This document shows positions 21,901-55,586 of a stretch of 64,000 bases of DNA, piece after piece. The stretch's first letter is position 1. Every line of letters begins with the position of its first letter. This DNA comes from an uncultured Candidatus Micrarchaeota archaeon (GTDB lineage: Archaea > Micrarchaeota > Micrarchaeia > Burarchaeales > Fermentimicrarchaeaceae), in assembly GCA_903884505.1 (NCBI GenBank), contig CAISET010000015.1:10819-74818 (forward strand), given 5' to 3'. Below the pieces are notes generated by a model. The model searched no databases. It was not told the origin of the DNA and was given only the letters and a program-made list of their open reading frames with translations. A program made the translations under genes and the position numbers.

Positions 21901-23287
21901 CTCCATAATGACGGACATGGACGCGGATTGCAGGTGGGACGCGGCCGAGATGAACTATACCAACATGCCCCTTAACCACAGCTTCAACACTACGGGTGGC
22001 CACTGGGCCAACCTTGCGAACGCAACTCCGGGCCAGGGCCTCAACATGTTCTTCATCCGCTGCAGGAGCAAGGGAGGAAGCGCAATCGAGATGAGCTCGT
22101 CAGCGCTGTTGGCCTTCAACTATGACACGATTCAGCCCACGATATACGGGCTGGGCTGGTATCTGGACGATGGGGCGCAAAAAATGTACCTGGACTTTGC
22201 GTCCGATGAGCCGCTCGACCTGAGCTCGCTCGCCCTGACATTCAACAACACCCCGATGACCCATGACGGCGGCAACGGCATGAACTTCGTATACAGCTTC
22301 AACTACTCTGCACTCCCCGATGGGACCTACGAAGTCAACATGACGTCATGCAAGGACCTTGCGGGCAACATATGCGTGCAGAGCGGCGTGCTACTCGGCG
22401 AGTTCCCATTCGATGTGACAATCGACAGGGCGGCGCCCGCTATATCCGGTGTCGGCTACAACGCGAGCACGTGGAACCTTACTGCCACGACCAATGAGAG
22501 CGCGACCTGCAAGTGGTCATGGGCGAATGAGGACTACTGGGACATGCCGAATGCAATGACCGGGTCGGGCACGGGCCACTTCGCATTGGTGCCACTGCCT
22601 GAAGGGTCATACAACATCTACATCAAATGCGCGGACGGGTCATACAACGTCGGCAACTATACCTACAGCGTGAGCGTGGATACGATGCCGCCGGTGATAA
22701 CCGCCTCGAGCCCGACCGGCGTAATCGCAACGAGCTCGCCAACGCTCAACGTGACGACGAATGAGGCGTCAATCTGCAGGTATGCAACCAGCGCGTTCAA
22801 CTATGACGCGGGCGGCATTCTGATGGACAACACAACGAGCGGGCTTGTGCACACGAAGCCGCTGAGTGGGCTGAATGACAGCACCTATCTCTACTATGTG
22901 CTCTGCCGCGACGCTGCAGGGAACACGATGGCTTCGCCGCTGCCCATAACCTTTGTCATAGACACCCGCGGCAACTTCAACTACACCTATGACCTGAGCG
23001 TGGGCTGGAACAACTTCTTCCTGCCGAGGATAGTCCTCCAGAACTTCACCTCGCTTGGAGGAAACTACACGGTCAAGAACGTGCTCGAGACAAAGGGCGG
23101 ACTGACAAACACGAGCTACAACATGCTGTATTACAGGAACGCCACTTCGTGCCCGGCGCAGAACGGAAGCTGCTGGAGGTCGTATGTGCCCGGAGACACG
23201 GCGAACGACCTGACGGAGTTCAACGACTGGGACAACCTGCCTTACTGGATACACATGCTGCTGGCAGACAGGCTGGAGATACCGTAA
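12962..23287 (+). CDS. Giant secreted cell-surface protein (~3440 aa; adhesin/S-layer-associated type, heavily N-glycosylation-sequon rich). Alternative starts are GTG 12917 and ATG 13046.
   Basis: Single 10.3-kb ORF. The N-terminal signal peptide is MLLVPVLLIIFSLSASA. Composition is biased to N/T/S/G/Y/D with very frequent N-x-S/T sequons. There are at least 6 internal ~170-300-aa repeats (e.g. GGDSLTFEPDTLLNVTYPASLNAGSF / GAGSLTFQPDTLINVTYPASMNNGSF) and C-terminal ~95-aa Cys-bracketed domains (C(R/K)(W/Y)...Y(Y/L)YV(L/K)CxDxxGN). Confidence 0.8.
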   Translation: MKNKKNRGGAGDTASQTADCVFSSAGKAMLLVPVLLIIFSLSASAAVSFRGDWPNDGNSYRVEIYDLGQASPCDNESDNGTLLAGSGNIQGNDQFDSNDEYLLPLSLTSSGNLYIYFCNSADNTTLVSYVRNTTAGSNVELDFGKVVGTAATNNDLGSKYVHVCDALNGGTNIASSSALTAADGSYTQYYYLDEPSVATGGTNIPNLYIFFDNDNSNKCTFDATKIAGLHVIPSTQLPYNYGVNISYSPGTKLSSNAHADIMASGYLKVQRAAGDNEFVGMTGELTGGAGAYNLYYQNPATGTLTVYVYTGAVPDTTPEEIITGLANGASGNALDLSVRISGSVPSDVATVTTTIGGLTYNVSTIAGTPKTYNLYIPTGQAPAIAFKDAGGATLFTYNYGASVGSDDTLNVGKLYGNVHANLDGAGNTIQVFEDSACTANGSIESLAVVPHTANSPDYVAYFADGKNSTGPDYWVGINDSGYTICGNGFQLSSEERNMDFTSLITGTVSAGIYTAGAMALDADDDGVYSAGDPFTTHFDTSHNYELYVNSSGSHNILAFSTVAGGYPGTLELNISKTIAVDTTFNVGQVDWQAANVSADLTGASAVCGTGACWLSVYNGTSDVSSKTKTFAADGSQFYAVPAGTVDFQIWGDGGLVSYVSGYTPDADYRVTFEPGYNVTMTAPAGMIWAITGGGTFANYSSNAAGEQIYVDKSEEELPTTYTYSAYTTSPTTLRLSWGSKDASTDATWEVDKVSGASPAILDVSGSDTGDIQVASNLTACRAGTFVSSELVQPASGNYAQYYEGSAATYYVRARYAKAGTGNFDSCVKFSGSGGGASDTAGLVEVTGTVPSTSLGVKDLTEVGADNAELSGWTTANDSGDDATTLSFYSNVYHLVSLKDTAATTAHVRFYISGPGVALITQEDLALAGSSTTVNVDDIRGNVPALLDTAVLEGSTASGEICGGTPPIPGSKVAVATASDPGYRLYAKATGASFYVNFCDTNNTEGLGANTKLLEESVTTTSSGGHTFLLNVSRVGGAAHADLTDGDDPFSVYSGSGCTTPLSSETLYGLNPGTYAGSENYSQYYQTSGAGNYYLGVVEDGNTSCMRFSGGVAGSNDVVDITTKLSGTVPTAITKVAAANASGDGTIDAFTTDITAGAYALYIPSGSATSSALAYEGATLRLNRTKDLSVSDANFDVNEVHGDKSLLHSDIRGGTWYIEVWNTGGGKVSSETVDMGGGSGTYKQFYEDHLGYDIRIYNASHELAYYVYGYNPGVSGGDDLTFEPDTKLTTTAPTGIAAVEAIDKTRDDFTYRDNTSAPSNPYFTMYVANSTSYDLNAYTDSFTTLGLARTVALGTDKDLSGGDYEWIIGEITGNCANINSALKPAGGPGAMHVKVVDDYTNIGGWAEYSSQTVDLVTTCGTSPSYMQYYDESDVKNATNADIVFTISGSDYFVIKDYAPATNPDVMTLEPQYELTIVDPGPSDIQSAKFNLTAGALGTGTAAVEIVADGSANLVQLSSIYLPAKSGYTFHAYTATDLSGEVLERNSKAMAADDDWNIADVTGANASIHADLADGTHRIFVYANDDSTIVSGIQSGTQYATVGDYTLYYDVDDAGASAYIQVTTNTSALLTRYKYALPGLVGGDSLTFEPDTLLNVTYPASLNAGSFSYNDGTYNYYITAGENGGDTYVQSGSGYNFSAYTGAAWTTEVLRRAGKAVAPATTSWDIAEVTGNSTYLHPYLIGHQVKIYNNTDTGMVSGIEGGQQYVTIPAAGNNYTIYYDVGDADGSMYIHINSPALLLTRYHYNGPQFAGAGSLTFQPDTLINVTYPASMNNGSFKYTDSGGFDYLIKATENGTYVEADKSLYNFSAYSDAAWSALELNRTGKTVTAPTTPWNIADVYWNTTYVNGDLSGAAAQLEVYTTAGSLVSSETRTFDADDYQYYEVPDSGNVDFRVYDNPGAAVLFYAYNFTPSAAGNTMFEPYSPVVAHAPGTIHSWAIRGHNFTYRDNTTSLIIYVDYLEEYYNTDYIYKAYTGDFAGDVLSMGPKDASLNPHWYVNTVTNPYIHNDLVGSANLTVVYLNAGTDTDCDTATALSSPTDQIWANGIKKYYEGEGAGAKYVEIKVTNGSYVTCINTLGLEPVGGDQNTDYDLDVKTNGTVNSGIVTVYIDSNPTSNDDISQATVASGSVKLYNIYWAGASPADISYNDSTTKQLDLTGRNLTTNPTTINVGKVSGLSHPDMTTAQVYFDSACNTTQLSTETTGEPFNASGTPPYAYQRYFEDNGTQYLAVSDGVHTTCGTGGFTLSNEDATINMGRMVSGSTPSSTYDVVTWGGLPADADIVSIAANMSGGATNDFTTSPVSTGPAAPDDYVLFVDSDALGLSTTMLDFYANITPTGLVFDKAVDLSALDNVTNVAKVAGLADAGLWGGQFRVCDAIPSLADWGGCTTYLDSVPVMPANGSLATLDYDLFFEQPAVTDYYVELHSTGAYGGAPSYTYHLVSTTQSGDYIYQDFDGVVFGTVNETYNATVPIPNVEVNVYTGITDLVKAYTDAAGYYELYSGSSSGPMFIGEPAMPYGVAYNMSFQKAGYVTRDWNTDPNDTTDYSTPFVDSSSPLGDFGINGAAYPLAGAIGPDRLYLQLLSGIIVNVTDLGGNPINDATVSIYDCSFSSNPADCTTIGTCTNPPGGVLTGNCTLAAANNPDAYPGQYFFAGTTTPGDYVQIRVAKAPFDTQFDPDPNASVNNNIGGGGALQALVKTIRMINPAPKCSLEVTAPGGMSYQDRQYLVVANDSAVKFVVQCGEAGLDVTGDMSPLGGDPLVSFYPDYALGTVYNHWQGINASDDTYRLPINASDGVNTWQGLGYVEVDGTPPGIYDYYPHGGTFNTKSVTFGVWTDEIAVCHYDTNPNDIFWNMSYTMAGDGSQHTGMVYADNGANTVYVRCADRLGNAMNTSQEISFNVDAVAPSVTNVSPAYLIKPYNATNRGNVSIMTDMDADCRWDAAEMNYTNMPLNHSFNTTGGHWANLANATPGQGLNMFFIRCRSKGGSAIEMSSSALLAFNYDTIQPTIYGLGWYLDDGAQKMYLDFASDEPLDLSSLALTFNNTPMTHDGGNGMNFVYSFNYSALPDGTYEVNMTSCKDLAGNICVQSGVLLGEFPFDVTIDRAAPAISGVGYNASTWNLTATTNESATCKWSWANEDYWDMPNAMTGSGTGHFALVPLPEGSYNIYIKCADGSYNVGNYTYSVSVDTMPPVITASSPTGVIATSSPTLNVTTNEASICRYATSAFNYDAGGILMDNTTSGLVHTKPLSGLNDSTYLYYVLCRDAAGNTMASPLPITFVIDTRGNFNYTYDLSVGWNNFFLPRIVLQNFTSLGGNYTVKNVLETKGGLTNTSYNMLYYRNATSCPAQNGSCWRSYVPGDTANDLTEFNDWDNLPYWIHMLLADRLEIP

Positions 23288-31174: not shown

Positions 31175-33628
31175 TCACCGCTTCCTCTTCCAGGCAACTG
31201 CCACTGCGATTCCCCCAAGCCCTGCCAGGATGAAGCCGAGCGGGCAGGTTGAAGGCTGCGGTGTGGGTGAAGGTGAGGCTGTCGGCATCGGAGTCGCGGT
31301 CGGGACCGGTGTCGGAGTCGCAGGCGATTGCAGCTGCGGTGCGAACGAATACACATAGGGGTTGCTCGCGTTGTACCTCTGCCAGTAGTCCTGGTTGTCA
31401 ATTGGTATCGGCGCAGAGATGGAAGTGCCGGTGCTGAGGGTTATGTTCGCTGTGGCGTTGCAGTTGTTCGTCGGCGGGTAGAAGTACGGCATCTCGCCCC
31501 TCCGCACGGTCACGGTGTAGTTGTAGCCGCCAGGCCCTTCGCCGCAGTCGAACAGCCAGGAGACGGTCATGTTGTATTCCTCTGCCGGAGAGCCGTCAGG
31601 GTTCGTGACGTTTAGCTGGATGAAGTTGCCGGGTATCTCGGGCGAGTCGTAGCGCTTCTCGTAGATTGGGTTCCCGTATGCATCATTGTGATATATTTTC
31701 GTGTACCCGATGGCTTCCCCGGACTCCCAGTAGTAGTGGTTCATGTAGTCATAGAAGAATCCGTGCGCCGCGAATATCTCGTCGAGGTTGTCCTGGCCAT
31801 TGTTGTCGCAATCGCCGTGTAGGCCCGGGAGACTCGAATCGTTGAACGCGCGGTAAAGGTCCCAGACGCTCGAGATGTAGCGCGTGCCTGAAAATGGCTC
31901 GCCGAACGTGTGCTGGGAGCCTATCACGCTCCATATCTGGTCACGGCTTAGGTGCACGCAATCCTTCCCGTTCACGGTGTTGTTGTACCCGAGGATGTTG
32001 ACTGCCTGGAACAGGGTGGACTGGTGGTTCAGCATCCTGTAAAGGGTTGAGGCGACCGCCATCTCCTCCGGGTTCCTGACATCGGTGTCCAGGTTTATCG
32101 CCGAGCCGGGCTGCCCGACCCAGTAGTCGTGCTGGTCCGTGTAGTTCCAGTACTGGAGGTTCATCACGCTGAAGAATTCAGCCCAGCCCTCTTCCCAGGA
32201 GTCCGTGGAATTGGGGTTGGACCAGCTTCCGTGGTTGTTGCCTGAGCGCACTGGCAGGCAGTTGAACCTGTCCAGCATCACATGGTGGCCGAACTCGTGC
32301 CACTCCATGTTCGTTGGCGAGGCGTCATAGAAGACGTTGTCATATGAGTTCTGGTTGTCACAGAAGTGTATCCAGTCATCGCTCGGAGGATTCCCGCACC
32401 AGGCTCCGAAGTGGCAGGCGTTGCAGCTCCCGCAGCCCGGCGACTTGTACCAGAACTCCTCCGGAGGCAAATAATCGATTGGAGTGCCGAGCGCCACTCT
32501 TGTGAAATATGATGCTTCCCAGGCGTGGTAGTATATCTTCGCCAGCACGCGCTCCTCGCCCTGATCGAAAGTGAGGTTCATGGCGTAAGTTTCCGGCCTG
32601 GAGAAATTCATAATCGCGGTCTTGCTAAGCACAGCCACCTTGTCGGGGTAGACGTGAATGGCGATGGAGTTGTTCACATCCTCGAGGAAAACAGTGACTG
32701 TCAGCGAACCTGCAGTGTGGTTTGTCAGGTTGACTCCGGGAACTACGACGTAGCCGTTCGAGTCCGTGTAGCCGTCGTAATCGAATGCCAACGAGGCGTG
32801 TTGTACGCAGTACTGCCCCGGCGGGCAGTACTGGCTGCCGCCAATCGGTTCGGTCACGTATCTGGCAGTTACCTTGGCATCCCTCAGTGGCTTCGTCACG
32901 TTATCCTTGTCCACGAACTGGGCCGAGCCGAGGCGGAAGTTGCATTTCGTGACATTGTTGCAGCCGGCGGCGCAGTGATAGCCGTTGGAAATCAGGCAGA
33001 GGCCGAGCTGCTGGCCGCAGGCCTTCTCCACGTATTCATCGCCGTAGCAGCCGGTTGTGCAGTTGGTGCAGTTCTGCGGCGGAGCGGTCTGTATTGGTAT
33101 GGGGGTGATGGAAGGTGACTGGATTGGCAACGGCGTCACCATGGGTGTTGCGGTTGGAGTCTGAGCCGGCGTTGGCGTCGGAGTTGGCGCGGGTGCGGCA
33201 GCGCATCCAGGCATTGCTGCGCTGCATCCATACGGGCAAGCGGTTGACTGGGCGTACTGGCAGGCACCGGTCGCACTCCTGTATCCTCCGGAATAGTAGA
33301 TTCTGTCCGAGCAGTAATCGTTGCACGGCGCTGGCGTCGCCGTTGGAGTCGGCGTGGGAGTGGGCGTCGGCCTCGGCGGCGAGTAGCATGCGGTGCCGTC
33401 CCGCGTGCATTGCCCGGATTCGCAGGCGGTGTCCGTGCGGCATGTGCAATTCCCATACACGACCGAGCAGCCGTAGTGGTAAGTGCCATCAGAGCAATAT
33501 TCGAACGGGCAGTAAGGCGTCGGAGTCGGGGTCGCAACCGTCCTTGCATTGGCAGCAAGCGCGAAAAGGGCCAAAACTGCAAATGCTAAAACCGCTCTGA
33601 CTTTCATATGACTCACCTCCGAACTCAC
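31175..33628 (-). CDS. Secreted zinc metallopeptidase (HEXXH). It has Cys-rich N-terminal modules, P/T linkers and a PGF-CTERM-like C-terminal anchor.
   Basis: 817 aa: signal MKVRAVLAFAVLALFALAANA; Cys-rich repeats (YCPFEYCSDGTYHYGCS.., CNDYCSDRIYYSGGY..); a CarbopepD-reg-like segment; the HEFGHH motif followed by EEGWAEFF (candidate third ligand); and the C-terminus ...TPVPTATPMPTASPSPTPQPSTCPLGFILAGLGGIAVAVAWKRKR. Confidence 0.65.
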   Translation of the reverse strand: MSSEVSHMKVRAVLAFAVLALFALAANARTVATPTPTPYCPFEYCSDGTYHYGCSVVYGNCTCRTDTACESGQCTRDGTACYSPPRPTPTPTPTPTATPAPCNDYCSDRIYYSGGYRSATGACQYAQSTACPYGCSAAMPGCAAAPAPTPTPTPAQTPTATPMVTPLPIQSPSITPIPIQTAPPQNCTNCTTGCYGDEYVEKACGQQLGLCLISNGYHCAAGCNNVTKCNFRLGSAQFVDKDNVTKPLRDAKVTARYVTEPIGGSQYCPPGQYCVQHASLAFDYDGYTDSNGYVVVPGVNLTNHTAGSLTVTVFLEDVNNSIAIHVYPDKVAVLSKTAIMNFSRPETYAMNLTFDQGEERVLAKIYYHAWEASYFTRVALGTPIDYLPPEEFWYKSPGCGSCNACHFGAWCGNPPSDDWIHFCDNQNSYDNVFYDASPTNMEWHEFGHHVMLDRFNCLPVRSGNNHGSWSNPNSTDSWEEGWAEFFSVMNLQYWNYTDQHDYWVGQPGSAINLDTDVRNPEEMAVASTLYRMLNHQSTLFQAVNILGYNNTVNGKDCVHLSRDQIWSVIGSQHTFGEPFSGTRYISSVWDLYRAFNDSSLPGLHGDCDNNGQDNLDEIFAAHGFFYDYMNHYYWESGEAIGYTKIYHNDAYGNPIYEKRYDSPEIPGNFIQLNVTNPDGSPAEEYNMTVSWLFDCGEGPGGYNYTVTVRRGEMPYFYPPTNNCNATANITLSTGTSISAPIPIDNQDYWQRYNASNPYVYSFAPQLQSPATPTPVPTATPMPTASPSPTPQPSTCPLGFILAGLGGIAVAVAWKRKR

Positions 33629-34227
33629 GCCTGCCTTATTTCAATCGTCTTCACCACGCTCTTGAGCGGGGCGCCGTTGTAGGAGACCGTGACCGTGAAA
33701 TTGTGCAGCCCGTAAGAGATGCCCGTGCACGTCGTGCATGAGGGCACGTTGAACCCGAAGTGCTGTTCGCTCTCCCCCTGCGGAAGGTCTAGCGTCATCT
33801 GCGTATCCATGATATTGCGGCCCCTCGAGTTGGTGATGCCGACAAGCGAGACGTTCACCCCCTGGAGCCTGCGCGCGGCGGTTATGTTCACGACTATCGC
33901 CATCTGGTCCAGCGCGTGATAGGAATCCCCGTCAGTATATACTTCGAGCGAAGTTATATCCTCGGGCAGGACAGCGCCGGAAGGCGTGGGGCTGGCAAGC
34001 GATTGCGTGGGCGCAGGCGTAGGGGTTGCGACGGGAGTTGCGAAGGGCGTTGGCGCTGGCGTCGGAGTCTGAACTGGAGTTGGCGTGCTCATCGGGGTAG
34101 CCACGGGGGTTGGCGTTGGCGCGGGAGGCACATTTCTGTCAATCCCACCGCTATATACTACTATTGCCGCTGCCGCCATCACGACTGCGAGCAGAACCAC
34201 AACAAGAATCCAGGTCTTCATACTCAT
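33625..34227 (-). CDS. N-terminally anchored extracellular protein with a P/T-rich linker (unknown function), co-transcribed with the metalloprotease
   Basis: 200 aa: MSMKTWILVVVLLAVVMAAAAIVVY signal-anchor, (PT/PA) linker, then a ~100-aa domain. 4-bp overlap with the downstream protease gene. Confidence 0.5.
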   Translation of the reverse strand: MSMKTWILVVVLLAVVMAAAAIVVYSGGIDRNVPPAPTPTPVATPMSTPTPVQTPTPAPTPFATPVATPTPAPTQSLASPTPSGAVLPEDITSLEVYTDGDSYHALDQMAIVVNITAARRLQGVNVSLVGITNSRGRNIMDTQMTLDLPQGESEQHFGFNVPSCTTCTGISYGLHNFTVTVSYNGAPLKSVVKTIEIRQA

Positions 34228-34241
34228 GCCCCCTTTGATTT

Positions 34242-34356
34242 CAGAACCCCCGATGCGCTGGCTTTAGTCGCCTTCGGCGACAACTGCGCAACTCACGTTG
34301 CGCATCGCCAACTTCGTTGGCGACTGCCTGTTGCGCGTTGCGCAACATCGTCGGTT
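34242..34356. repeat. Hairpin-mosaic repeat element, copy A (4 mini-hairpins; shared termini CAGAACCCCCGATGCGC...GCGCAACATCGTCGGTTCCTGAAC)
   Basis: GTCGCC-TTCG-GCGAC, GCGCAAC-TCACG-TTGCGC, GCCAAC-TTCG-TTGGC, GTTGCGC-GTT-GCGCAAC. Homologous to the elements at 34541, 43781 and 50827. Confidence 0.8.
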
Positions 34357-34469
34357 CCTGAACTTCTGTTTTCCGCTGGCGCTTTTTATTATGTTCTTAC
34401 AATTTCCGATTGAACGCTTTACCATACGCAACCCGATGGTAATCGGATATGCGTTGGGAAAGGGTTCAA

Positions 34470-34540
34470 AGCAGAGGATGGGAGTCGAACCCATCTGTTC
34501 CGGTCTGCAGCCGGACGCGTAGCCGCTCCGCCACCTCTGC
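34470..34540 (-). tRNA. tRNA-Cys (anticodon GCA)
   Basis: Minus-strand sequence GCAGAGG-TG-GCGGAGCGGCTACGCG-TCCGG-CTGCAGA-CCGGA-ACAG-ATGGG-TTCGACT-CCCAT-CCTCTGC-U. It forms a 7-bp acceptor stem, a 5-bp anticodon stem with loop CUGCAGA (anticodon GCA), a T-arm with a TTCGA(C)T loop, and a U discriminator. Confidence 0.9.
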
Positions 34541-34700
34541 AGAACCCCCGATGCGCAGGCTTGAGTCGCCTTCGGCGACAGCTGCGCAACTTCGTTGCGC
34601 ATCGCTCTTCGTTCCAAACGAGCTCGCTCACCGCGCATATCCAGTCGCCTTCGGCGACTGCCTGTTGCGCGTTGCGCAACATCGTCGGTTCCTGCACCTC
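34541..34700. repeat. Hairpin-mosaic repeat element, copy B, immediately 5' of tRNA-Cys (in its presumptive leader)
   Basis: Same termini as copy A: agaacccccgatgcgcaggcttga-GTCGCCTTCGGCGAC-...-GCGCAACTTCGTTGCGC-...ctcgctcaccgcgcatatcca-GTCGCCTTCGGCGAC-tgcct-GTTGCGCGTTGCGCAAC-atcgtcggttcctgcac. Confidence 0.8.
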
Positions 34701-34752
34701 CGCCGCTCTGGCGGAGGAGCTTTCTATATTGTGTTAGTCTGGTTTAAAAACG

Positions 34753-37334: not shown

Positions 37335-38108
37335 ATGCGCAAGCCCTCCCTCCTGATAATATCCGCGTCTTCCTCAGATGGCTGCGCAGGCATGCAGATG
37401 GACATCCAGGCCGCGGCAAAGCTCGGAGCCATTCCCGCGTGCGCAATAACCGCAGTCACCGCGCAGAATTCGGTTGGCGTGCAGGGCATCTGGCCCGTTC
37501 CGGTGAAAGCCATCCGCCAGCAGATAGATTCCGCATTCTCAGACCTCGACATCTGCGCCGTGAAAGTCGGGATGCTCTGGGGAAAGCAGGCGGCAATCGA
37601 AGTGGCGCATTCGCTGGGAAAATGGGGCGCACTAAATGTTGTCTTCGACCCGGTTATGGGTGCGCAGAGCGACAGGAAGGGAATGGCTGAGAAAGGCGCA
37701 GAGAACGCCTTCCGCGCAGTTTGCGCAGTCAGCGACCTGGTGACTCCAAACCTTGAAGAGGCAAAAGCGCTCACAGGAATAACTGTTCGCGACCAGGAAT
37801 CTGCGTCCAAAGCCGCATGGAAGATTATGGAGACCGGCGCGCAGGCAGTCCTGCTGAAATCTTACCCTTGGGACAAAGGCGTTCTCGCGGACCTCCTATT
37901 CAATGATGATGGCCTCGGAATCTTCAAGAAAAAGAAGCTTGCAACTTCAACGCACGGCGGCGGCTGCCTCCTCTCCTCAGCGATTGCGGCAAGGATGGCG
38001 CTAGGCGACAATCTCATTGACGCGGTCTCGGCCGCGGAGACTTGCATCGAGCAGGCGATTGCAGGAAGCGTGCAGGCAGGCTGCGGAATCCGGTGCGTGA
38101 AACTTTAG
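37335..38108 (+). CDS. thiD: Hydroxymethylpyrimidine / phosphomethylpyrimidine kinase
   Basis: LLIISASSSDGCAGMQMDIQAA..., ...TPNLEEAKAL..., ...THGGGCLLSSAIAARMALG... are ThiD/PdxK ribokinase-family motifs. The ORF track gives an alternative GTG at 37326. Confidence 0.85.
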   Translation: MRKPSLLIISASSSDGCAGMQMDIQAAAKLGAIPACAITAVTAQNSVGVQGIWPVPVKAIRQQIDSAFSDLDICAVKVGMLWGKQAAIEVAHSLGKWGALNVVFDPVMGAQSDRKGMAEKGAENAFRAVCAVSDLVTPNLEEAKALTGITVRDQESASKAAWKIMETGAQAVLLKSYPWDKGVLADLLFNDDGLGIFKKKKLATSTHGGGCLLSSAIAARMALGDNLIDAVSAAETCIEQAIAGSVQAGCGIRCVKL

Positions 38109-39463
38109 TCAGCACCGAAAAGAGACTGGGCGACTTCTGCGAAACGCTCCATGCGCAATTTTGCGATCGGTGAGTCGTAATGCGCGTGGCTGAAGTTGTA
38201 TTCCACGCGCCCAGAATCCGCATTATAAGCATGATAAATGGCCGCGAACCTTTTCGAAAGCTCCTCAACCTCGAGCAGCCTGAATGCCTCATCCAGGTAA
38301 AACGCGAACTCTGCGACCTGCTGGCCGCTAACGAGCAGTGAATCAGCGTAAATCCCGAGTTCCTTGTCTTCGGAAGGCCTTTTGCCGATTGCCTCATTTA
38401 TCTTCTGCGGAAGCTTCTGGGAATTGAGGTGGATTACGCCGAGTTCCATGAAGAATCCCTTCAGCTGCCTTACCAGCTCCTCCTCGAACTTCCTCTGCAC
38501 TTCCGCCTCAATGTCGTTCGAATGCCTTGCGAGCTCCACTTCCACCTTCTCATCCACCTTTGCGCGCATCCTCTCCTCGCGCGCCGCCTGTGCGCTGAGA
38601 TAACCCTCCATTATACTCAGCATCCTCTTCCTCTGCTCGGCCTCCTCCTGGTCATCTGCAAATTTGTTATCGGGTTTTGAAAGCAGGGCGGTGACTCTGG
38701 AGCGGACGTCTCCCACACCCCTTGCCTCTGCCAGTTTCGGGGCATCCCTCTGCTCTTCGAGCTGCCCCTTTATTTTCACTCTCCACTCCTCCGCAACCTG
38801 CTTCTTCAGCTTCTCCCGCAGCCCCATTTGCGAAGGGGTCGCAGGCCCTGTAAAAAGTTTGTCTTGTTCCTCAAAATCGGCATTCAGCAGCCTGGAGCCG
38901 AGCTTCGCGAAGCGCTTTGAATGCGCAAGCTCGCGCAGCACGTCCTTGGCAGCGCCGCCGTTCTCCCCGACGAGCGTTTTTGAAATGCCCCGTACACATC
39001 CGAGGTACTTCTCCTCCGCAGCAGCGTCCATCACGTCCCAATGCTCCTTCGCCATTCCCTTCTCCTGTGCCGCGTAAGCGCTGATTGTTGCGCGCGCATA
39101 CTCGAGCCAGCCATCCGTATCCCTGAGGAACCCTTCGGCAACCTCCAGGCGCCGTGCGCGCTCCTGCGCTTCAAGCGTCTTCTTGTCCGGGGCAAGAGGC
39201 AAGTAAGAGGGGAGATGCATCTCGCTTTCCTTAATCCCATCCTCCCCCGTAAAGAAGCCAGGCGCGACATCCTCGCCATACCGCGCAAATAAGAAGCACA
39301 TGGGAAGGTTTACGTCCTCGTCCTTCGCATGCTCCGCCATCTTCAGCCTCGTCCCCGGAAGAAGCTTCTCTAGGATTTCGGGGAGCGTCTTCGGCCTTTC
39401 CTTCGGCTCGGCATCCTTTACCAGCATATTATTCCCGGCCACCCGCATATTTATGGCGTTCAA
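38105..39463 (-). CDS. Hypothetical soluble protein, largely alpha-helical/coiled-coil, divergent from the pilin operon
   Basis: 452 aa with good coding statistics, a charged helical middle region and no recognised motif. Confidence 0.45.
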   Translation of the reverse strand: MNAINMRVAGNNMLVKDAEPKERPKTLPEILEKLLPGTRLKMAEHAKDEDVNLPMCFLFARYGEDVAPGFFTGEDGIKESEMHLPSYLPLAPDKKTLEAQERARRLEVAEGFLRDTDGWLEYARATISAYAAQEKGMAKEHWDVMDAAAEEKYLGCVRGISKTLVGENGGAAKDVLRELAHSKRFAKLGSRLLNADFEEQDKLFTGPATPSQMGLREKLKKQVAEEWRVKIKGQLEEQRDAPKLAEARGVGDVRSRVTALLSKPDNKFADDQEEAEQRKRMLSIMEGYLSAQAAREERMRAKVDEKVEVELARHSNDIEAEVQRKFEEELVRQLKGFFMELGVIHLNSQKLPQKINEAIGKRPSEDKELGIYADSLLVSGQQVAEFAFYLDEAFRLLEVEELSKRFAAIYHAYNADSGRVEYNFSHAHYDSPIAKLRMERFAEVAQSLFGAD

Positions 39464-39533: not shown

Positions 39534-40064
39534 ATGCGACGGAACAAGGGACAGGCATCCATTGATTCGCCTTCGGCGAAAGCTCGCCGCCTGCTGGGGC
39601 AGGCGTCGATGGAACTTCTAATCACCCTAGCCTTCGCCCTCGTGATGCTCATACCAATCACCATCCTGGTCTACCTGCAGACGTCCTCCGGCTCGGAGCA
39701 GCTGGCGATAGACCAGGCGCAGCAGAGCGCGGCAAGGCTTAAGAACATCGCGGACACCGTGGCGGCCCAGGGCCCGCCGGCGAAGGCGACTATAAGCATA
39801 GTGATTCCACAGAGGCTGAACAGCATAACGATAGGCAGCGCCTCCGCGCCAGGAATAGGCAGGGAGATAATCTTCCACGTAGCGACTTCGGCTGGAGACA
39901 CCGAGATAGTCGCGACAACGCTTTACAATGTTACCGGCGACCTGAGCAACTACACGAAGGCAGGCACGTACCCCATCTATGCTGAAGCTGTGGACGACTG
40001 CCGCACATGTGATGGGAACATCATCGGGCCTGGCCTTCCATGCGTGGTCATCTGTCCGGCGTAG
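39534..40064 (+). CDS. Type IV pilin-like protein (class III signal peptide, Gln+1) P1. The leader holds an internal duplication and a hairpin module.
   Basis: MRRNKGQASIDSPSAKARRLLG|QASMELLITLAFALVMLIPITILVYL. The KG/LG-Q cleavage motif is followed by a ~20-aa hydrophobic helix. The ORF track starts at 39474, upstream of the promoter. Confidence 0.65.
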   Translation: MRRNKGQASIDSPSAKARRLLGQASMELLITLAFALVMLIPITILVYLQTSSGSEQLAIDQAQQSAARLKNIADTVAAQGPPAKATISIVIPQRLNSITIGSASAPGIGREIIFHVATSAGDTEIVATTLYNVTGDLSNYTKAGTYPIYAEAVDDCRTCDGNIIGPGLPCVVICPA

Positions 40065-41679: not shown

Positions 41680-43752
41680 TTGGAAAAACGCAGAAATGTG
41701 CTCAAAGGATTCTTCTTCACGCTACTGATAGTCGTGCTGTTCTCGCTCATCCTCCTCTCGCTGCGCGCCTGGATGAAGGGGCAGCAGGGTCCCGAGGAGC
41801 TGAATGCGGTAAGGGAACGGGCGGATGCAATGACCAGCATGATGGGCTCATGCGCCGCTGACGCGGACAGGATGACCTACCTCGCAGGCAACCGCTCGCT
41901 CTATTATGCGGCGTTCTATTCCGCCTACAACCTGACCGCGCACAGCAGCTCCAACCGCAGCGCCTACGAGATAATGTGGAACGCATCGCTCAACGGCTCC
42001 CCGAACTACGGTGTTCCGCCGGACACGTGCACTGCAGGCTCAAGCTTCTGCTATTTCGCAAACCAGACCGAGAACGCGACAATGGGCCTCTGGTGGCAGG
42101 GATTTGCGGCTGCCGCAGAAAAATACGGCTTCGACGCAAGCTGGCGACTCCACAGCTTCAACGCTTCCCAGTCCTCCCTCTCCGGAGTCTCGATTGCGCA
42201 CACCGCCAGCTTCGGGCTCAATGATTCGGCCGGCGTCGCATCGTTCAACAGGACGGTCTCGTTCAACAGGACCGTGAACATAACCGGCTTCGAGGACCCC
42301 ACGCACGCCATCTTCACCGACGGCGCAACACACCGCAACATCACCTGGTGGCCATACGACGCAAGCTATAATCTCACCTCAACAATCGCCACCGCAAGCA
42401 ACGGAAGCGGCTGGGTTTATGGCAATGCCACAACAATCCCCGGATGCTGCGTGGTCGACAACTGCACGGACGGCACGTTCGATGCCGTGGACTGGAACAC
42501 GACGCTCGTGGTAAACGATTCCAGCGCGCTCGCAGCGAACTGCCCTGATGCCGTGGCCAACAACTTCCGCGGAATCCTCTCCAACTACGGGAACGATTCC
42601 ATGTCAAGCATCACGGTCCCGAATGCATTCAACTTCGTCGGCGACATAACCTCCCTGGTGCCGAACGGGACCGCCGTGCTCATAAACAACGAAGGCGACA
42701 CGCACGAGGCCCTGGACGTGGAGGGGCTGCGCAACCTCACCGAATACGGCGCGTACTACAGGGAGAACCAGAACGCCCCGGACTTCATGATGCGGCTCGA
42801 GATGAATTTCAGCAACTCTCCATACGGGATTGAGTCGCTGATGAACTACTCGGAGGTCACGGACGCCGGCTTAAACCGCTCCTGGGCGGACTATTATTTC
42901 ATCAACGGGACCAGCTGCTCGGACTTGGCATCGGGATGCTTCAAAATCAAGGGGACCCTGAACTGCGAGAACTCCACGAACTGCAGCGACGACTCGGCAA
43001 TCCATTTCAGGCTGGACAACGAGACCGTGGTGGCGCAGCTTCCGGGATGCGTGCAGCCCCCTTCCGGGATGGTCGGGTGGTGGCATTTCGACGAGGGGAC
43101 CGGAACGAACGCCGCAGACAGCTCGGGAAACGGCAATAACGGGACGGTAAACGGCGCAACCTGGAACTCCAGCGGGATGTTCGGGGATGCGCTGACGTTT
43201 GACGGGAGTAATGATTATGTGAATACGACTTCGTCCGCCGGGTTATCCGGAGATTTTACGCTAGAAGCGTGGTTCATCGCAAATACCGTCCCAAACAGCA
43301 AAGGAATCGTAAGTGCCGGCTGCCAAACACCGTCGCAAAATTGTACAGATATAATGGGGTATGACGATAATATAACCGCGTTCATTGGGAGCGGTGGGGC
43401 ATACCTCTACTTGGTGGGGAACACGCCAATTGCTACAGATACCTGGTATTTTGCAACGGTAACCTATAACAGCACAACCCAGAATGTTTCTTTGTATGTT
43501 AATGGCGCGTATGACGCGAGCGCAATCCAGGCTACAACCGTTTCATTAACGCCTGTCTTCGGCAGGTTCTATTCCAATTACAACGATTATTATTTCAACG
43601 GCACCATCGACGAGGTCGCAATCTACAACCGCGCCCTCACGCAGGATGAGATTCAGGCAATCTACAATGCGGGCCCCGCAGGAATGTGCTACGGCATGAG
43701 CATGCCGCACCTCAACTACTACGGGATGGAGAACCTGACCCTGCCGAACTAG
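41680..43752 (+). CDS. Large pilin-like protein P5 with a C-terminal concanavalin-A-like lectin (LamG_3) domain; putative pilus adhesin
   Basis: TTG start. MEKRRNVLKG|FFFTLLIVVLFSLILLSL. ~450 aa are N-glycosylation-sequon rich. The C-terminal GMVGWWHFDEGTGTNAADSSGNGNNGTVNGATWNSSGMFGDALTFDGSNDYV...TWYFATVTYN...GTIDEVAIYNRALTQDEIQAIY is a classic LamG/Laminin_G_3 signature. Confidence 0.7.
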   Translation: MEKRRNVLKGFFFTLLIVVLFSLILLSLRAWMKGQQGPEELNAVRERADAMTSMMGSCAADADRMTYLAGNRSLYYAAFYSAYNLTAHSSSNRSAYEIMWNASLNGSPNYGVPPDTCTAGSSFCYFANQTENATMGLWWQGFAAAAEKYGFDASWRLHSFNASQSSLSGVSIAHTASFGLNDSAGVASFNRTVSFNRTVNITGFEDPTHAIFTDGATHRNITWWPYDASYNLTSTIATASNGSGWVYGNATTIPGCCVVDNCTDGTFDAVDWNTTLVVNDSSALAANCPDAVANNFRGILSNYGNDSMSSITVPNAFNFVGDITSLVPNGTAVLINNEGDTHEALDVEGLRNLTEYGAYYRENQNAPDFMMRLEMNFSNSPYGIESLMNYSEVTDAGLNRSWADYYFINGTSCSDLASGCFKIKGTLNCENSTNCSDDSAIHFRLDNETVVAQLPGCVQPPSGMVGWWHFDEGTGTNAADSSGNGNNGTVNGATWNSSGMFGDALTFDGSNDYVNTTSSAGLSGDFTLEAWFIANTVPNSKGIVSAGCQTPSQNCTDIMGYDDNITAFIGSGGAYLYLVGNTPIATDTWYFATVTYNSTTQNVSLYVNGAYDASAIQATTVSLTPVFGRFYSNYNDYYFNGTIDEVAIYNRALTQDEIQAIYNAGPAGMCYGMSMPHLNYYGMENLTLPN

Positions 43753-43780: not shown

Positions 43781-44105
43781 TGCCGCCTTGCGGCAACAGC
43801 TTGCCCGCCACCAAGCGGGCAATCGCCTGCTGGCGAAATGTTGGCAACTGCGGCCGCCAACGCTCGCTGCCATATCCAGCCGCCTTCGGCGATTGATTTC
43901 GCCTTGCGGCGAAAGCTTTCGCATCCCGGATGCGAAATTTTAGCGGCAAAGCCGCTAAAGCTGTCGCTTTGCCGCGGGCAAAGCGCCATTGAGTCGCCTT
44001 TCGGCGACAGCTCAAATCGCCTGCGGCGATAACTGCGCAACTCACGTTGCGCATCGCCAACTTCGTTGGCGACTGTCTGTTGTTTCGCCCCGCTCAACAA
44101 CATCC
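43781..44105. repeat. Hairpin-mosaic repeat element, copy C (longest, ~13 mini-hairpins) in the convergent intergenic region
   Basis: TGCCGC-CTTG-CGGCA, GCCCGC-CACCAA-GCGGGC, GTTGGC-..-GCCAAC, CCGCC-TTCG-GCG, TTCGCC-TTGCG-GCGAA, TTCGCATCC-CG-GATGCGAA, AGCGGC-AAA-GCCGCT, CGCTTTGCC-GCG-GGCAAAGCG, GTCGCC-TTTCG-GCGAC, ATCGCC-TGCG-GCGAT, GCGCAAC-TCACG-TTGCGC, GCCAAC-TTCG-TTGGC. The 3' end is a degenerate copy of the shared terminus. Confidence 0.75.
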
Positions 44106-44135
44106 TAAAAGCGCTAGCGGAAAATGCCAAACTCT

Positions 44136-45128
44136 TTACGTAAGTATCCCGGCGAAGACGGTGCTGAATATCCAGTTCGTCATGAAGAAGATCGACAGCC
44201 CGGCAGCCATGATGAAGGGCATTATCCTTAGGCCGTTGGCGGAATTGCCGGTCTGTATGACCGCTATTATAAGAGACGCGATTGCCGTGGTGATGATGGT
44301 CGAGAGAAGGGAGAATGCGAAGAAGTCCGAGGACGTGATTCCGGGTGGCTGGGGCGAGAGGAACATCATCCCGCCGGTCGGCAGGCCCTCGGGGTTCTGC
44401 TCCAGCACCCTGTCCCATATGACGTTCGTGATGTTTATGAGCTGGTTGGACAGCGCATAGAGCAGGGGCGCGCCGACCACGCTCGCGAATATTATGAATA
44501 TGACATACATCAGCATCATTCCGGAAATCTCCTTGTGGAGCAGCTGCAGGTTCCTTATGTCCTGCCCCGTCTTCTCGAGCAGCGCCGCGACCTCGCCACC
44601 TGCCGACATCCCCTCAACGAGGAGGTTTATCGTCCTCTCGAGCGTCTTCGACTGGAACCGCGTCCCGAGCCTCTTTATCGCATCCATGAAAGGCTCGCCG
44701 CTGAACGTCCTCTTCGTGACCATCTCCACCTCCTGCGAGAGCAGGCCGAACTCGGGCCTGGCGGCGAACCACAGCGCCCGGTCTATGGGCATGCCGGCGC
44801 GCACATTGGCGCTCGCGAGCTGGAGGAACTCCGGGAGGATGTTCTCCACCTTGTTCCGCCTGTCGTCTATCCTGAGGAGCAGCCACGCATAAATTATCCC
44901 AAGCGCCACGAATATGAGGCACAGGGAAACTATCAGCGCATATTTCGGAAGGAACGGGTTGATGAGGAAGAACGAGACCAGCGGGACGATCGCGCAGAGC
45001 ACCATAACCGTGCCCACGAACGCCTCGGGCCTCATGTTCACTCCTGCCATCGAGAGCGTGCTCGCAATTCCCATCACGAAGTTCCTCGGAAACATCCTTC
45101 CCAGTGCGTTAAGCTCAACCATATTCAA
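44136..45128 (-). CDS. Type II secretion system F-domain membrane protein (FlaJ/TadC/EpdK-like pilus platform protein), C-terminal-half paralog
   Basis: 330 aa with ~8 TM segments and the T2SSF-like cytoplasmic segment (...LLQLASANVRAGMPIDRALWFAA...). 4-bp overlap with the upstream platform gene. Confidence 0.75.
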   Translation of the reverse strand: MNMVELNALGRMFPRNFVMGIASTLSMAGVNMRPEAFVGTVMVLCAIVPLVSFFLINPFLPKYALIVSLCLIFVALGIIYAWLLLRIDDRRNKVENILPEFLQLASANVRAGMPIDRALWFAARPEFGLLSQEVEMVTKRTFSGEPFMDAIKRLGTRFQSKTLERTINLLVEGMSAGGEVAALLEKTGQDIRNLQLLHKEISGMMLMYVIFIIFASVVGAPLLYALSNQLINITNVIWDRVLEQNPEGLPTGGMMFLSPQPPGITSSDFFAFSLLSTIITTAIASLIIAVIQTGNSANGLRIMPFIMAAGLSIFFMTNWIFSTVFAGILT

Positions 45129-46111
45129 ACCTCGAAGTTCGGCCTTGAAGAACTCATCATCGCAAGGAAGATGTACTGCAGCACCCCGAGCAGGAACAGC
45201 ACGATGAGCAGCATATTGAAGTCAATCTTTATGTTGATGAATGAGGTCAGGATAATGCCTATCGCGATGCCCAGCGAGGGCAGTATGATCCCGAAAAGCA
45301 TGTAGAACATCGTGATCGGGTTCAGCGTCTGCCCGTACCTCTTGAGCGCGATAACCTGCTCCTGCGAAATCTGGCTCAGCACTATCTCGAGCGCCAGCGC
45401 CATGTCGGCGCCGGACCTCATCGATGTGACCATCTGCAGGAGTATCTGCCTGAACGGCTTGGAGGTGTTCATGTCGCTGGACTCCTGCATGGCGATCTCC
45501 GCGGGCACGCCGCTCTGTATCCTCTCCACAATCTTCCCGAATTCCTCGCTCGCCACCCCGTAGTTCCTGCTGACGTTCGCCATCGCGTTGAAGAGCGGGA
45601 CGCCGGACTTTATGGCAATAAGCATGTCCCTCCCGGCGAAAAGCACGTCCCTGTCGAGGTCCTTCTCCCTCGCCTTTATCTTGACTTTCGGATACTGTAT
45701 AACCCACAGGAAGACGGCCGCGAAAACCAGCGGTATCACGAGCAGCGTTAGGAGCAGCGGCAAACTCAGGGTGGTCGCCAGCACTGCGAACAGTACTCCG
45801 CCCCCAAGCGCGAATATGGTTGCGACAATGAGGGTTTGTGCGATGAATTTTGGCGCGTCCATCGGCATGTTCGCCCTCTTCAGGTTCTTCTGGAGCTCCG
45901 GGAACCGCTTCTCTAGGAGCCTGAGGCCTATCTTGATATAGTCGGTCCGCTGCTTCGCCTCCACCCGCGGGAACTTCTTCGGAGGCGCCTTCTCAGCTTC
46001 CGTCCTCTCCACCAGGGCCGCCGTCTCCTTCTTCTGCTTGGCGCTGAGCTTCTTCTTCGCCTCCTCTATTGCAGCCGCAACCTCTGCAGCGCTTTTCTCA
46101 GCCATAAGCAT
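45125..46111 (-). CDS. Type II secretion system F-domain membrane protein (FlaJ/TadB/EpdJ-like pilus platform protein)
   Basis: 328 aa: cytoplasmic N-terminus, then TM helices and a T2SSF segment (...FAGRDMLIAIKSGVPLFNAMANVSRNYG...EIAMQESSDMNTSKPFRQILLQMVTSMRSGADMALALE...). Confidence 0.75.
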   Translation of the reverse strand: MLMAEKSAAEVAAAIEEAKKKLSAKQKKETAALVERTEAEKAPPKKFPRVEAKQRTDYIKIGLRLLEKRFPELQKNLKRANMPMDAPKFIAQTLIVATIFALGGGVLFAVLATTLSLPLLLTLLVIPLVFAAVFLWVIQYPKVKIKAREKDLDRDVLFAGRDMLIAIKSGVPLFNAMANVSRNYGVASEEFGKIVERIQSGVPAEIAMQESSDMNTSKPFRQILLQMVTSMRSGADMALALEIVLSQISQEQVIALKRYGQTLNPITMFYMLFGIILPSLGIAIGIILTSFINIKIDFNMLLIVLFLLGVLQYIFLAMMSSSRPNFEV

Positions 46112-46115
46112 CCAC

Positions 46116-46922
46116 TTACTCTTCCTTCATCTCTTTTTCTATCTCCTCTTTTAAGCGTTCCTCTCTTCTCTTCTTTTCCTCAGAGGACATCCTCTCCGAT
46201 ACCTTCCTGGCGATCTCCTCCTTGAGCACCTTCGCGCGCTCCATCCGCTTTGCCTCATCATCGGTCGGCTTCGCCTCGGGCTGCGGTTTTCCCCCCGCTT
46301 CCGGCGCCTGGGACAACTGCTGTGCGGCGGCCGGCTTCCTCTCCTCCATCTTCTCAAACAGCGTCTTCCTCGGGGCCTTCCCCATGAGCTTGGCAAGCCG
46401 CTCCCCCATCAGGCGCCTCTGTTCCTCCTCGCTGACAGCCGCAGTTGGCGCCTTTACCTCGGGCCTGGTTGGCGGTGCGGCAGGCAGTATCTTCCGCTGC
46501 CCAGCAGGCTCGACTGGCCGCGGCGAAGGGGCCTCGGCGGCGGGCTTCTCCGCCTTTGCTGCGGGCTTCGCTTTGACCTCTTCCTCCGCGAACCTCCTCT
46601 TCATCTTCTCCAGCTCTTCCTGCCCACGCTTCTCCCCTTCCTCCGGCGAGACCCTCGCCGCGCGCGGCGCAGCAGCGGCAGCAGGCACCCGTCCCTGCAC
46701 CACCCCCAGCTTGGCCTCGATGCGCAGCGCATCCTCAAGCGCCTTGTCGAAGCTCATCACGGAGATTTCGGTCGGGTCCTTCTCCTCGAAAAGCGCGGCG
46801 CCGGCGAGCTTCTCCTTCGGGATCTCCGGCATCAGGACAAGCAGCCCCTCAAGCCTCTTCACCTCGGCAATCGCCTCGCTGAAAAGAGCCTGGTCCACGT
46901 TTGGCAGCCTTTCTTCCGGCAT
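46116..46922 (-). CDS. Highly charged K/E/A/P-rich low-complexity protein (pilus-operon accessory; unknown)
   Basis: 268 aa with EEEVKAKPAAKAEKPAAEA-type tracts. Lies between the ATPase and platform genes on the same strand. Confidence 0.4.
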   Translation of the reverse strand: MPEERLPNVDQALFSEAIAEVKRLEGLLVLMPEIPKEKLAGAALFEEKDPTEISVMSFDKALEDALRIEAKLGVVQGRVPAAAAAPRAARVSPEEGEKRGQEELEKMKRRFAEEEVKAKPAAKAEKPAAEAPSPRPVEPAGQRKILPAAPPTRPEVKAPTAAVSEEEQRRLMGERLAKLMGKAPRKTLFEKMEERKPAAAQQLSQAPEAGGKPQPEAKPTDDEAKRMERAKVLKEEIARKVSERMSSEEKKRREERLKEEIEKEMKEE

Positions 46923-46931
46923 TGCACCACG

Positions 46932-55514: not shown

Positions 55515-55586
55515 CCCATCCCTTCTCCTGCCCCACTCCGCCGCCATAGCCTGCATCCTCTCCGGCGCCTCAACTCCCAAATGCCC

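Follow-up and report, generated by a model that had tools for sequence, protein, structure and literature searches.

We analysed a 64 kb stretch of contig CAISET010000015.1 (the window), which belongs to the metagenome-assembled genome of an archaeon and whose contig is present in several ENA samples. The window carries clusters of small palindromic hairpins: copies A and B on either side of a tRNA-Cys gene, copy C within a surface-protein gene, array D, and single units in pilin-like genes (Table 1). These sequences are probably lineage-restricted palindromic DNA repeat modules that are maintained at the level of DNA and are not selected as RNA or peptide. The arrays sit where extra sequence does little harm, that is, between convergent genes, in the leader and trailer of a tRNA, in 5′ untranslated regions (UTRs) and in the parts of genes that code for class III signal leaders. 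The original prediction, made from the letters of the window, described a non-random family of interchangeable mini-hairpins, and this stands: the end sequences exceed what shuffled DNA gives, and the folds have z scores of -5 to -9. It missed that C lies inside an open reading frame (ORF) and that the same modules occur in frame in class III leaders, here and in other archaea.

The window is archaeal by its Nre gene, class III-type signals, T2SSE and T2SSF, and TATA-like boxes about 25 nt upstream of leaderless starts. One window protein has distant homologues labelled Micrarchaeota/Micrarchaeia, and the organism is likely to belong to the DPANN archaea. Syntenic contigs of relatives were reached through 90% protein clusters and homologue look-ups. 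They represent a closer relative (L019), a second species (L015, L018, L022-L024 and L027) and a third species (L020). At the nucleotide level the second species is 72.5% identical to the window in ThiL, 79% in T2SSF, 89% in CBS and 92% in tRNA-Cys. Contigs L001-L006, assigned to the relative by common samples and GC content, encode RNase P p30, L15e and diphthamide synthase, which also point to an archaeon. Perfect hairpins were scanned for with stems of at least 6 bp, matches to end sequences were counted with up to three mismatches against 100 shuffles, and fold z scores were computed against dinucleotide shuffles.

Three recent copies of one composite

Clusters of perfect hairpins are found only at 34267-34347, 34565-34717, 39566-39605, 43781-44072 and 50869-51068. 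One composite underlies copies A, B and C, all three of them recent. The 17-mer CAGAACCCCCGATGCGC occurs exactly at 34242, 34540 and 50827 (the shuffles average 0.32 matches, and 2 of 100 reach three), and the 21-mer GCGCAACATCGTCGGTTCCTG occurs exactly at 34340, 34674 and 51061, a count of three that none of the 100 shuffles attains. B and C are 95% identical over 92 nt. With this identity and no flanking duplication, the three copies look as if recently copied or recombined within the genome of the window. As originally described, A and B are direct copies bracketing the tRNA-Cys gene (34470-34540, minus strand), and the copies lie where they had been placed, except that B starts at 34540 rather than 34541; this first base of B is also base 1 of the tRNA.

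The ends had been proposed as a signature of the family. They are exact, and they pair with each other in A, B and C, where CAGAACCCCCGATG and CATCGTCGGTTCCTG form about 12 bp interrupted by a bulge and an internal loop; the outer stem at the B site, however, is an ancestral stem-loop. The exact 21-nt ends match neither the 596 Gb of reference genomes searched nor the JGI metagenome collection, so that "conserved ends" describes three recent local copies and not the family as a whole. Two further copies had also been predicted. One is C, with its ends and eight hairpins; the other, D, has about 12 hairpins and lacks the ends, although some 60 nt of its 3′ part are nearly identical to A.

The palindromes are odd-centred, with a stem of 6-9 bp around a mostly 3-nt TTC loop (12 TTC loops against one GAA on the plus strand), and the copies in the window are all oriented alike. 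The loops were first taken for UUCG tetraloops. Most are TTC triloops, and there is a single true C(UUCG)G, in ATTTGCGC-TTCG-GCGCAAAT at 50952. A, B and C each form a multibranch fold closed by their own ends. Folding in both orientations, a check suggested with the original prediction, gave a z score of -5.4 for A on either strand; C scores -7.4, D -8.9, and the minus-strand leader together with the tRNA -4.4. Searched against Rfam 15 at gathering and at permissive scores, the sequences returned the tRNA alone, the best other hit being a SAM riboswitch at 15 bits (gathering score 44). The statement that no such archaeal family is known thus agrees with the Rfam result and with a limited literature search. 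A clustered regularly interspaced short palindromic repeat (CRISPR) array was ruled out, as there is no regular repeat-spacer period.

Palindromes can confuse assemblers, and the source is a metagenome assembly, which raises the question whether the arrays are chance clusters of GC-rich palindromes or artefacts. This explanation is effectively refuted. The exact repeats lie far above the shuffles, the same contig is present in several samples, and the intragenic arrays preserve long ORFs. Independent assemblies (ENA, JGI and Logan) agree exactly on related arrays, which makes an assembly artefact, including the collapse of repeats that the original prediction had raised against itself, unlikely.

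Modules accumulate side by side and inside loops

The building block is a perfect palindrome of 15-20 nt with a 6-9 bp stem and a TTC-type loop. Stem types that recur are GTCGCC, TGCGCAAC, TCGCCAAC, (T/A)TTTGCGC, TTCGCC and ATCGCC; five stem types are each found in at least three loci (3-8 loci) and across two or more species. The ATTTGCGC/GCGCAAAT stem has the loop TTCG in the window and CGAA in a relative, and hence occurs in both orientations. Whole composites are kept as well. The 43-nt sequence GTCGCCTTCGGCGACAACTGCGCAACTCACGTTGCGCATCGCC is shared without change by non-coding A and a pilin-gene leader in L003, and D differs from it by one compensated pair (ATCGCC/GGCGAT). This identity stands against a difference of 11-27% in coding DNA between the genomes (72-89% identical).

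Modules accumulate both side by side and within the loops of existing hairpins, giving mosaic arrays that are closed by an outer stem. Four independent cases document the nesting. The element at 1055-1120, which lies just upstream, on the minus strand, of a ribosome-binding site and an ATG at about 1052, has an empty homologue in L002 (121-185) and one in L007 (minus strand, about 4690-4790) with two mini-hairpins in its loop. At the D site of L015, a GTCGCC[..]GGCGAC hairpin encloses two more hairpins. The framework of the B site exists with and without inner hairpins, and the small TCGTT-CCA-AACGA hairpin of B has the same stem in C with a 59-nt insert. These four cases of a hairpin within the loop of an older one suggest that single-stranded loops are the entry points. 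With homologous positions that are empty or hold one, four or at least eight units, the natural series makes the rules of insertion readable, including loop targeting and the direct and inverted duplication of the target.

The tRNA-Cys locus

Lying between the only TATA-like box and the tRNA, B is plausibly part of the 5′ leader of the predicted pre-tRNA, as originally proposed; the box itself is at 34741-34751. A second AT-rich box occurs at 34723-34729, and in L018 a similar box, CTTTAAAACC, and the ThiL stop are 5 nt apart. Next to the tRNA, the closing stem of B reaches exactly to position -1. The precursor is predicted to have an extremely structured leader of about 180 nt, on which archaeal RNase P could be put to the test.

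In the second species the space between the ThiL stop with its TATA-like box and the tRNA-Cys gene holds CAGAACC-52 nt-GGTTCCTGCACCTCC, an imperfect stem-loop with the same outer stem as B and no mini-hairpins, identical in three assemblies. This indicates that the outer stem of B is ancestral and that its inner hairpins are later additions. Between the tRNA and this stem-loop, the second species has a 51-nt insertion (L018 8768-8831; likewise in L015 and L027), in which the tRNA 5′ end is directly duplicated over 13 nt (CCGCCACCCCTGC), its first bases recur in inverted form, and a TTCGCC-GCCA-GGCGAA hairpin is present. With T for the target, T′ for its inverted copy and X for the added hairpin, the insertion in L018 reads T-T′-X-T, the signature also seen in pilin leaders (see below), here at a site that is not a pilin gene.

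The A site is occupied in the window lineage. The minus-strand gene 33625-34227 has its start codon at 34227, and A sits 14 nt upstream of it. L018, L015 and L027 have no A, and there the orthologous gene has its ATG 1 nt from the tRNA 3′ end; both A and the adjoining 109 nt are specific to the window lineage. The original prediction proposed a comparison of orthologous sites for presence and absence. Such variation is seen for A, which is absent from the second species, and for C, which shows none, four or at least eight hairpins; at the B site it concerns the inner hairpins.

In L018 the surface-protein gene downstream has its annotated ATG 1 nt from the tRNA-Cys 3′ end (8708/8709), which suggests a tRNA-mRNA co-transcript from which processing of the tRNA 3′ end would yield a leaderless mRNA. 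A conserved 3′ extension of the element, CACCTCC(G/A)C (window 34695-34703; L018 about 8890-8900), reads GGAGGTG on the minus strand, a perfect Shine-Dalgarno-like sequence, and on the plus strand resembles the 3′ end of 16S rRNA. A small ORF starting from this GGAGGTG on the minus strand of B was rejected, as it passes through the tRNA gene. We also rejected an integrative element at the tRNA; no integrase was found among the window proteins scanned, and the stem-loop at the B site is ancestral. The motif TTTTCCGCTRGCGCTTTT/AAAAGCGYTARCGGAAAA is kept beside hairpin arrays and past the T2SSF stop, at 34368-34386 (plus strand), 44103-44122 (reverse complement), L015 8022-8040 and twice in L007; it may be a T-rich terminator or a promoter element.

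Copy C, array D and their orthologous sites

Copy C is predicted to be translated at least in part. The codons of the glycine-glutamine (GQ) cleavage motif lie at 51099-51104 and are preceded by a 98-residue leader that is mostly encoded by C. The last in-frame ATG, GTG or TTG before the GQ site is at 50970, inside C, so that at least about 130 nt of C must be translated. The positional orthologue in the third species (L020) has the leader MKKERAQTVLEF with no hairpin. In the second species (L022, L023 and L024) the orthologues have a 33-residue leader, MGKGQSALESPAAIKSPSGDSSPTPLAITRRQHGQSALEFL, with four hairpins in frame, the first three of which match the first three of C in order and frame (54 of 62 nt identical, counted by eye). 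The series at this site therefore runs from zero (L020) through four (L022-L024) to at least eight (window), always in frame. The 3′ part of C is homologous to the framework of the B site (..CATATCC..GGTTCCTGNACCTCC), from which we infer that C is a composite of an ancestral leader array and a copy of the framework.

Array D includes, from 43976, a unit coding for GQSAIE in a non-coding setting. At the orthologous D site (L015 7832-8047) the flanks are kept and the hairpins differ, the array being identical in three assemblies. The arrays had seemed hypervariable between strains. This was moderated, since the genome compared belongs to another species and its arrays are identical across three assemblies; presence and absence at the level of strains is seen only between L003 and L004 and between the window and L019.

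Single units in pilin-like genes

A class III motif (basic leader, G or A at -1, Q at +1, E at +5 and a hydrophobic helix of about 20 residues) is found in five genes of the window, which also contains a type IV pilus-like operon with two T2SSF genes and one T2SSE gene at 44136-48443. The leader is expected to be removed by prepilin peptidase, and extra codons there should thus cost little. Two of the genes carry a single 48-nt unit. In the pilin-like gene 39534-40064 the unit consists of ATTGA, hairpin X (TTCGCC-TTC-GGCGAA), AGCT, hairpin Y (CGCCTGC-TGGG-GCAGGCG) and a second GQAS motif; in the closer relative L019, the orthologue P0014 has an empty site, MRRNKGQAS|MELL. In the gene 60511-62142 a 23-nt direct repeat, CACGGGCAATCYGCGATTGAATT, at 60532-60554 and 60580-60602 with one mismatch, flanks hairpin X (ATTGCC-TTC-GGCAAT), AGCT and the target in inverted form (CGCAGAT). 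The window genes with cleavage sites near 55648 and 57211 are canonical.

The layout of the units is constant: a first target copy T1, ending in ATTGA, is followed by hairpin X, (A/T)GCT, an inverted copy of T, a second target copy T2 and the hydrophobic helix. T corresponds to the cleavage-site codons for G/A-Q-(S/A)-A-(I/M)-E, and the inverted copy forms hairpin Y with the GQ codons that follow it. Since T is the sequence coding for the cleavage site and is duplicated by the unit, the cleavage site always stays beside the hydrophobic helix. Perfect Y stems of 6-11 bp are present at 9 of about 14 downstream sites, in at least seven distinct sequences that each match their own codons. Decayed copies of Y have A.C or C.A mismatches in the sense of the mRNA and no G.U, and empty sites have no hairpin. 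The TTGA tag 5′ and AGCT 3′ of X hairpins are found together 5-6 times in the window and 0-1 times in shuffles. A unit carrying its own cleavage motif was considered and rejected, as each downstream copy is closer to its own upstream copy than to the downstream copies of other genes.

The same T-X-T′-T grammar, with other stems, is present in L008, L011, L013, L014, L025, L026, P0043, P0045, P0046, P0049 and P0052, and metagenome organisms with this grammar have up to five GQ motifs in one leader. The unit pattern gave no match in reference genome contigs or viral contigs and eight stretches in metagenomes. A word-index protein search with a long leader peptide found no matches, and an exhaustive phmmer search returned 11, about six of them true pilin leaders; P0042, P0044, P0048, P0050 and P0051 are unrelated repeat ORFs and were set aside. 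In the second species, one pilin gene has 0, 2 or 4 hairpins depending on the sample (L004, L002 and L003). L004 and L003 are alike on both flanks; the upstream context of L002 is different.

In hidden Markov model (HMM) searches with PF04021 and TIGR04205, the empty-site orthologue P0014 is the only match, below threshold (E values 0.1 and 0.09), and the versions with inserts have none. Gene callers and signal-peptide predictors will mis-annotate these genes. The class III leader is a niche not previously noted for selfish DNA, and added codons should be cheap there provided that the cleavage motif is regenerated.

Two groundwater metagenome contigs with a GC content of about 51%, L009 (278-364 and 7094-7321) and L012 (337-420 and 813-924), carry a TTGA-ATCGCC-TTC-GGCGAT-AGCT unit, and their intergenic regions hold long arrays of unrelated perfect hairpins. 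Two units in L012 are at the N-terminus of a membrane protein that is not a pilin. The phenomenon is thus not confined to one lineage or to pilins.

Evidence for maintenance at the DNA level

The GTCGCC hairpin is read as VAFGD in L003 and as SPSA elsewhere, and this use of one hairpin for different peptides argues for conservation of the DNA rather than the peptide. One could still suppose that the encoded peptides are selected, as Arg/Ser/Pro-rich leader extensions or as duplicate cleavage sites for targeting of the pilins, given that all intragenic arrays are in frame without stop codons and that ESPSA(I/T/K)A recurs. We regard this as very improbable. The same nucleotide module is read in different frames, identical modules occur in non-coding A, B and D, and close relatives function with canonical leaders of 6-9 residues. 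Composition by itself would be expected to leave such frames free of stops; in A-C, most of the six are open.

Stable folding and pairing ends raise a different possibility, that the arrays are functional cis-acting RNA structures in leaders or UTRs that stabilise, process or tune translation of the tRNA-Cys precursor, the mRNA downstream and the pilin/adhesin mRNAs, with the number of hairpins acting as a rheostat or phase switch. The closing stem of B ends exactly next to the tRNA, and A, B and the 1055 element are in the predicted 5′ leaders of minus-strand transcripts. The outer stem-loop at tRNA-Cys is kept in a species with 72-89% coding identity, and the shape of the X hairpin is retained with different stems across lineages. 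Stems are also kept while loops and linkers vary: in five copies of the composite of hairpins 1 and 2, 13 of 14 pairs are invariant and one is compensatory, with the other changes in loops and linkers. Covariation in this composite is, however, not significant, as 73 of 500 shuffles reach the observed value, and no Rfam family is matched. C and the pilin units are sense to transcription, A and B antisense, and D is between convergent genes. Moreover, orthologues and strains differ in whether they have the elements and keep the gene either way, and the stems are perfect, without G.U pairs, and decay without compensation. Taken together, these observations make a selected RNA role rather unlikely, and we favour maintenance of the modules as DNA.

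Several points weigh against this preference. The flanks of X (TTGA...AGCT/TGCT) and the shape of the hairpin are constant across lineages and the stems vary (GTCGCC, GTCGCT, ATCGGC, GTGCCC and ATTGCC); instead of mutation alone, this pattern could reflect a function or a protein that recognises the unit. Between species, stems are about 87% identical over 62 nt, counted by eye, as compared with 59% protein identity of the upstream gene; being better kept than the neighbouring genes hints at constraint or homogenisation. The translation and cleavage of the 98-residue leader are predictions, and the class III assignment is based on motif and context, with HMM matches below threshold. An attempt to derive the hairpin vocabulary from the cleavage-site codons failed for A-C. 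That all hairpins descend from GQSAIE codons is unsupported for these copies, whose 7-mer coverage by such codons is 0.22-0.26 against a background of 0.19 +/- 0.08; D, with 0.45, is the sole enriched array. The evidence base amounts to 64 kb of the genome and about 100 kb from relatives.

A possible mechanism

If the modules arise and spread as DNA, hairpins extruded on single-stranded DNA might stall replication or expose their loops. Short-range template switching, or an enzyme specific for hairpins, would then duplicate the local sequence, inverted as well as direct, and at the same time copy existing modules, and recombination between copies could relocate whole composites. Effects on RNA, such as a structured pre-tRNA leader or the 5′ end of a pilin mRNA, would be a by-product. 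Template switching is known to make perfect inverted repeats and mixed direct and inverted copies (PMC7954356), and it can keep palindromes perfect (PMC5941160). The constant TTGA and AGCT/TGCT flanks argue against a purely mutational origin and make a hairpin-specific enzyme possible. A scan of about 35 window proteins and the precomputed domains of the relatives revealed no transposase, HUH enzyme, integrase or reverse transcriptase.

A bolder proposal, which we put forward as a tentative possibility, is that the arrays are the footprints of an undescribed DNA insertion process of DPANN-type archaea that acts on single-stranded hairpin loops and on class III cleavage codons, leaves the scar T-X-T′-T (13-23 nt of target duplicated directly and in inverted form around a tagged mini-hairpin) and builds nested arrays by feeding on its own products. 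Such a process could involve a new hairpin-specific enzyme or unusually active replicative template switching. If this were the case, changes in the leader lengths of adhesin and pilin genes, and in the structure at the 5′ ends of their mRNAs, might let a population vary its expression of surface structures.

Relation to transposons and known palindromic repeats

[quoted passage not shown] The original prediction had likened it to REP/BIME mosaics or MITEs. The mosaic resemblance is borne out; the likeness to MITEs is not, given that there is no target-site duplication and no transposase in the proteins scanned.

Like the window family, REPs and BIMEs are short, GC-rich, structured palindromes, mostly extragenic and often downstream of genes, that form mosaics, have a constant tag by the hairpin and occasionally lie within genes (PMC3733652). 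REPs are, however, 20-40 nt palindromes tagged with GTAG or CGTC, arranged in head-to-head pairs and associated with the transposase RAYT, whereas the window family is flanked by TTGA and AGCT/TGCT and has a single orientation. Its stems are perfect, shorter and nested in loops, its host is an archaeon, and no RAYT was seen in the window or in the loci of relatives.

RPEs are palindromic repeats that lie in frame within genes and leave them intact (PMC10969869, PMC3733652), as do C, the two 48-nt units and at least ten leaders from metagenomes. RPEs are single units of about 100-150 nt that encode a conserved peptide and are scattered over many metabolic genes; the units described here measure 15-48 nt, are read in different frames without a conserved peptide, and are concentrated in class III leaders, where the cleavage motif is duplicated. 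A sequence relationship to RPEs is not evident, though no direct search was made.

Archaeal MITEs and IS200/IS605-derived elements (Sulfolobus, Haloquadratum) are likewise small, non-coding and multi-copy, with inverted ends or subterminal hairpins (PMC10969869, PMC3119063), and the arrays could in principle be non-autonomous transposons moved in trans, either MITEs using a classical transposase or elements on whose tag and hairpin an HUH transposase of the IS200/IS605 or RAYT type acts. The near-identity of A, B and C at unrelated sites, their imperfect terminal inverted repeats and the single orientation of the window copies would fit, as would the TTGA/AGCT tags, which recall the GTAG or CGTC tags of REPs (PMC3733652), and insertion into loops, which suits an enzyme acting on single strands. 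We nevertheless consider transposition of this kind unlikely. The flanks of A, B and C have no target-site duplication in common. Duplications at single units measure 13, about 17 and 23 nt and come with an inverted copy of the target, which matches neither the short, fixed duplications of DDE transposases and MITEs nor the IS200/IS605 elements (PATEs), which insert 3′ of a fixed tetra- or pentanucleotide without duplication. The modules vary in number, the exact ends, conserved only in three local copies, have no match in any collection searched, neither the GTAG nor the CGTC tag is present, and no matching transposase, HUH enzyme, integrase or reverse transcriptase was seen in the scanned proteins and precomputed domains.

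Cyanobacterial SDRs are very small hairpin repeats that insert into each other, and pneumococcal BOX elements have conserved end modules around a variable middle. The nesting and mosaic structure of the window family appear to match this description by analogy, with unrelated sequences and hosts. We know of no case in which SDR or BOX elements target a signal-peptide leader or duplicate their target in direct and inverted form. SDRs are mentioned in PMC3116915 and BOX elements in PMC10969869. Short-range template switching and quasipalindrome correction fit the T-T′-T layout and the perfect Y stems in that perfect inverted repeats, and patterns of direct and inverted copies, are made from local sequence (PMC7954356, PMC5941160). 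Known events of this type are isolated and small; the iterative building of arrays of 8-13 hairpins with modules common to several loci is undescribed.

A limited literature search found no palindromic insertions in archaea or in pilin leaders that are equivalent to the window family. Small palindromic repeats are well studied in bacteria and hardly in archaea, and in the same search none was found for DPANN-like lineages.

Other features of the window

Table 1. Hairpin elements and associated features of the window
Feature	Positions	Strand	Description
Second REP-like stem-loop family	1055-1120	+	GGGGGAC-TTC-GTCCCCC ... CTCCTCCTGATTCCCCC
Copy A	34242-34360	+	Stem CAGAACC..GGTTCCTG enclosing GTCGCC-TTC, TGCGCAAC-TCAC, TCGCCAAC-TTC and TGTTGCGC-GTT
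tRNA-Cys(GCA)	34470-34540	-	ARAGORN; Rfam RF00005, 56.4 bits; 92% identical to the relative's tRNA-Cys
Copy B	34540-34703	+	Ends as in A and C; hairpins 1, 2, small TCGTT-CCA-AACGA, 1, 4
Extra hairpin	34697-34717	+	CCTCCGCC-GCTCT-GGCGGAGG, between B and the TATA-like box
TATA-like box	34741-34751	-	GTTTTTAAACC; 2 nt past the ThiL stop; presumed tRNA-Cys promoter
48-nt unit	39561-39608	+	In pilin-like gene 39534-40064
Array D	43781-44105	+	About 12 hairpins between convergent genes 41680-43752 (+) and 44136-45128 (-)
Host gene of C	50805-55514	+	NosD/beta-helix surface protein; class III-like signal HIKG|QAAIEFLITNGWAILVV directly after C
Copy C	50827-51090	+	8 hairpins within the closing stem; inside ORF 50805-55514
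Single unit	60532-60602	+	In gene 60511-62142; 48-nt unit proper at 60555-60602

Four surface-protein genes follow one another at 50805-62142 on the plus strand. Each has a class III-type N-terminus, three contain NosD/beta-helix or Big_1 domains, and many coding repeats of 66-69 nt for beta-helix are found within them. The ORF 38105-39463 (minus strand, about 440-452 residues), between ThiD and the pilin-like operon, has no Pfam or NCBIfam match. It is absent in L015 and L019, whose pilin-like gene comes directly after ThiD, and may be a lineage-specific insertion. At 11146-12350, four to five tandem repeats of 237 nt (63-81% identical) lie in the ORF 10225-12750 (minus strand), which has no confident domain, and an ORF of 3456 residues occupies 12917-23287 on the plus strand.

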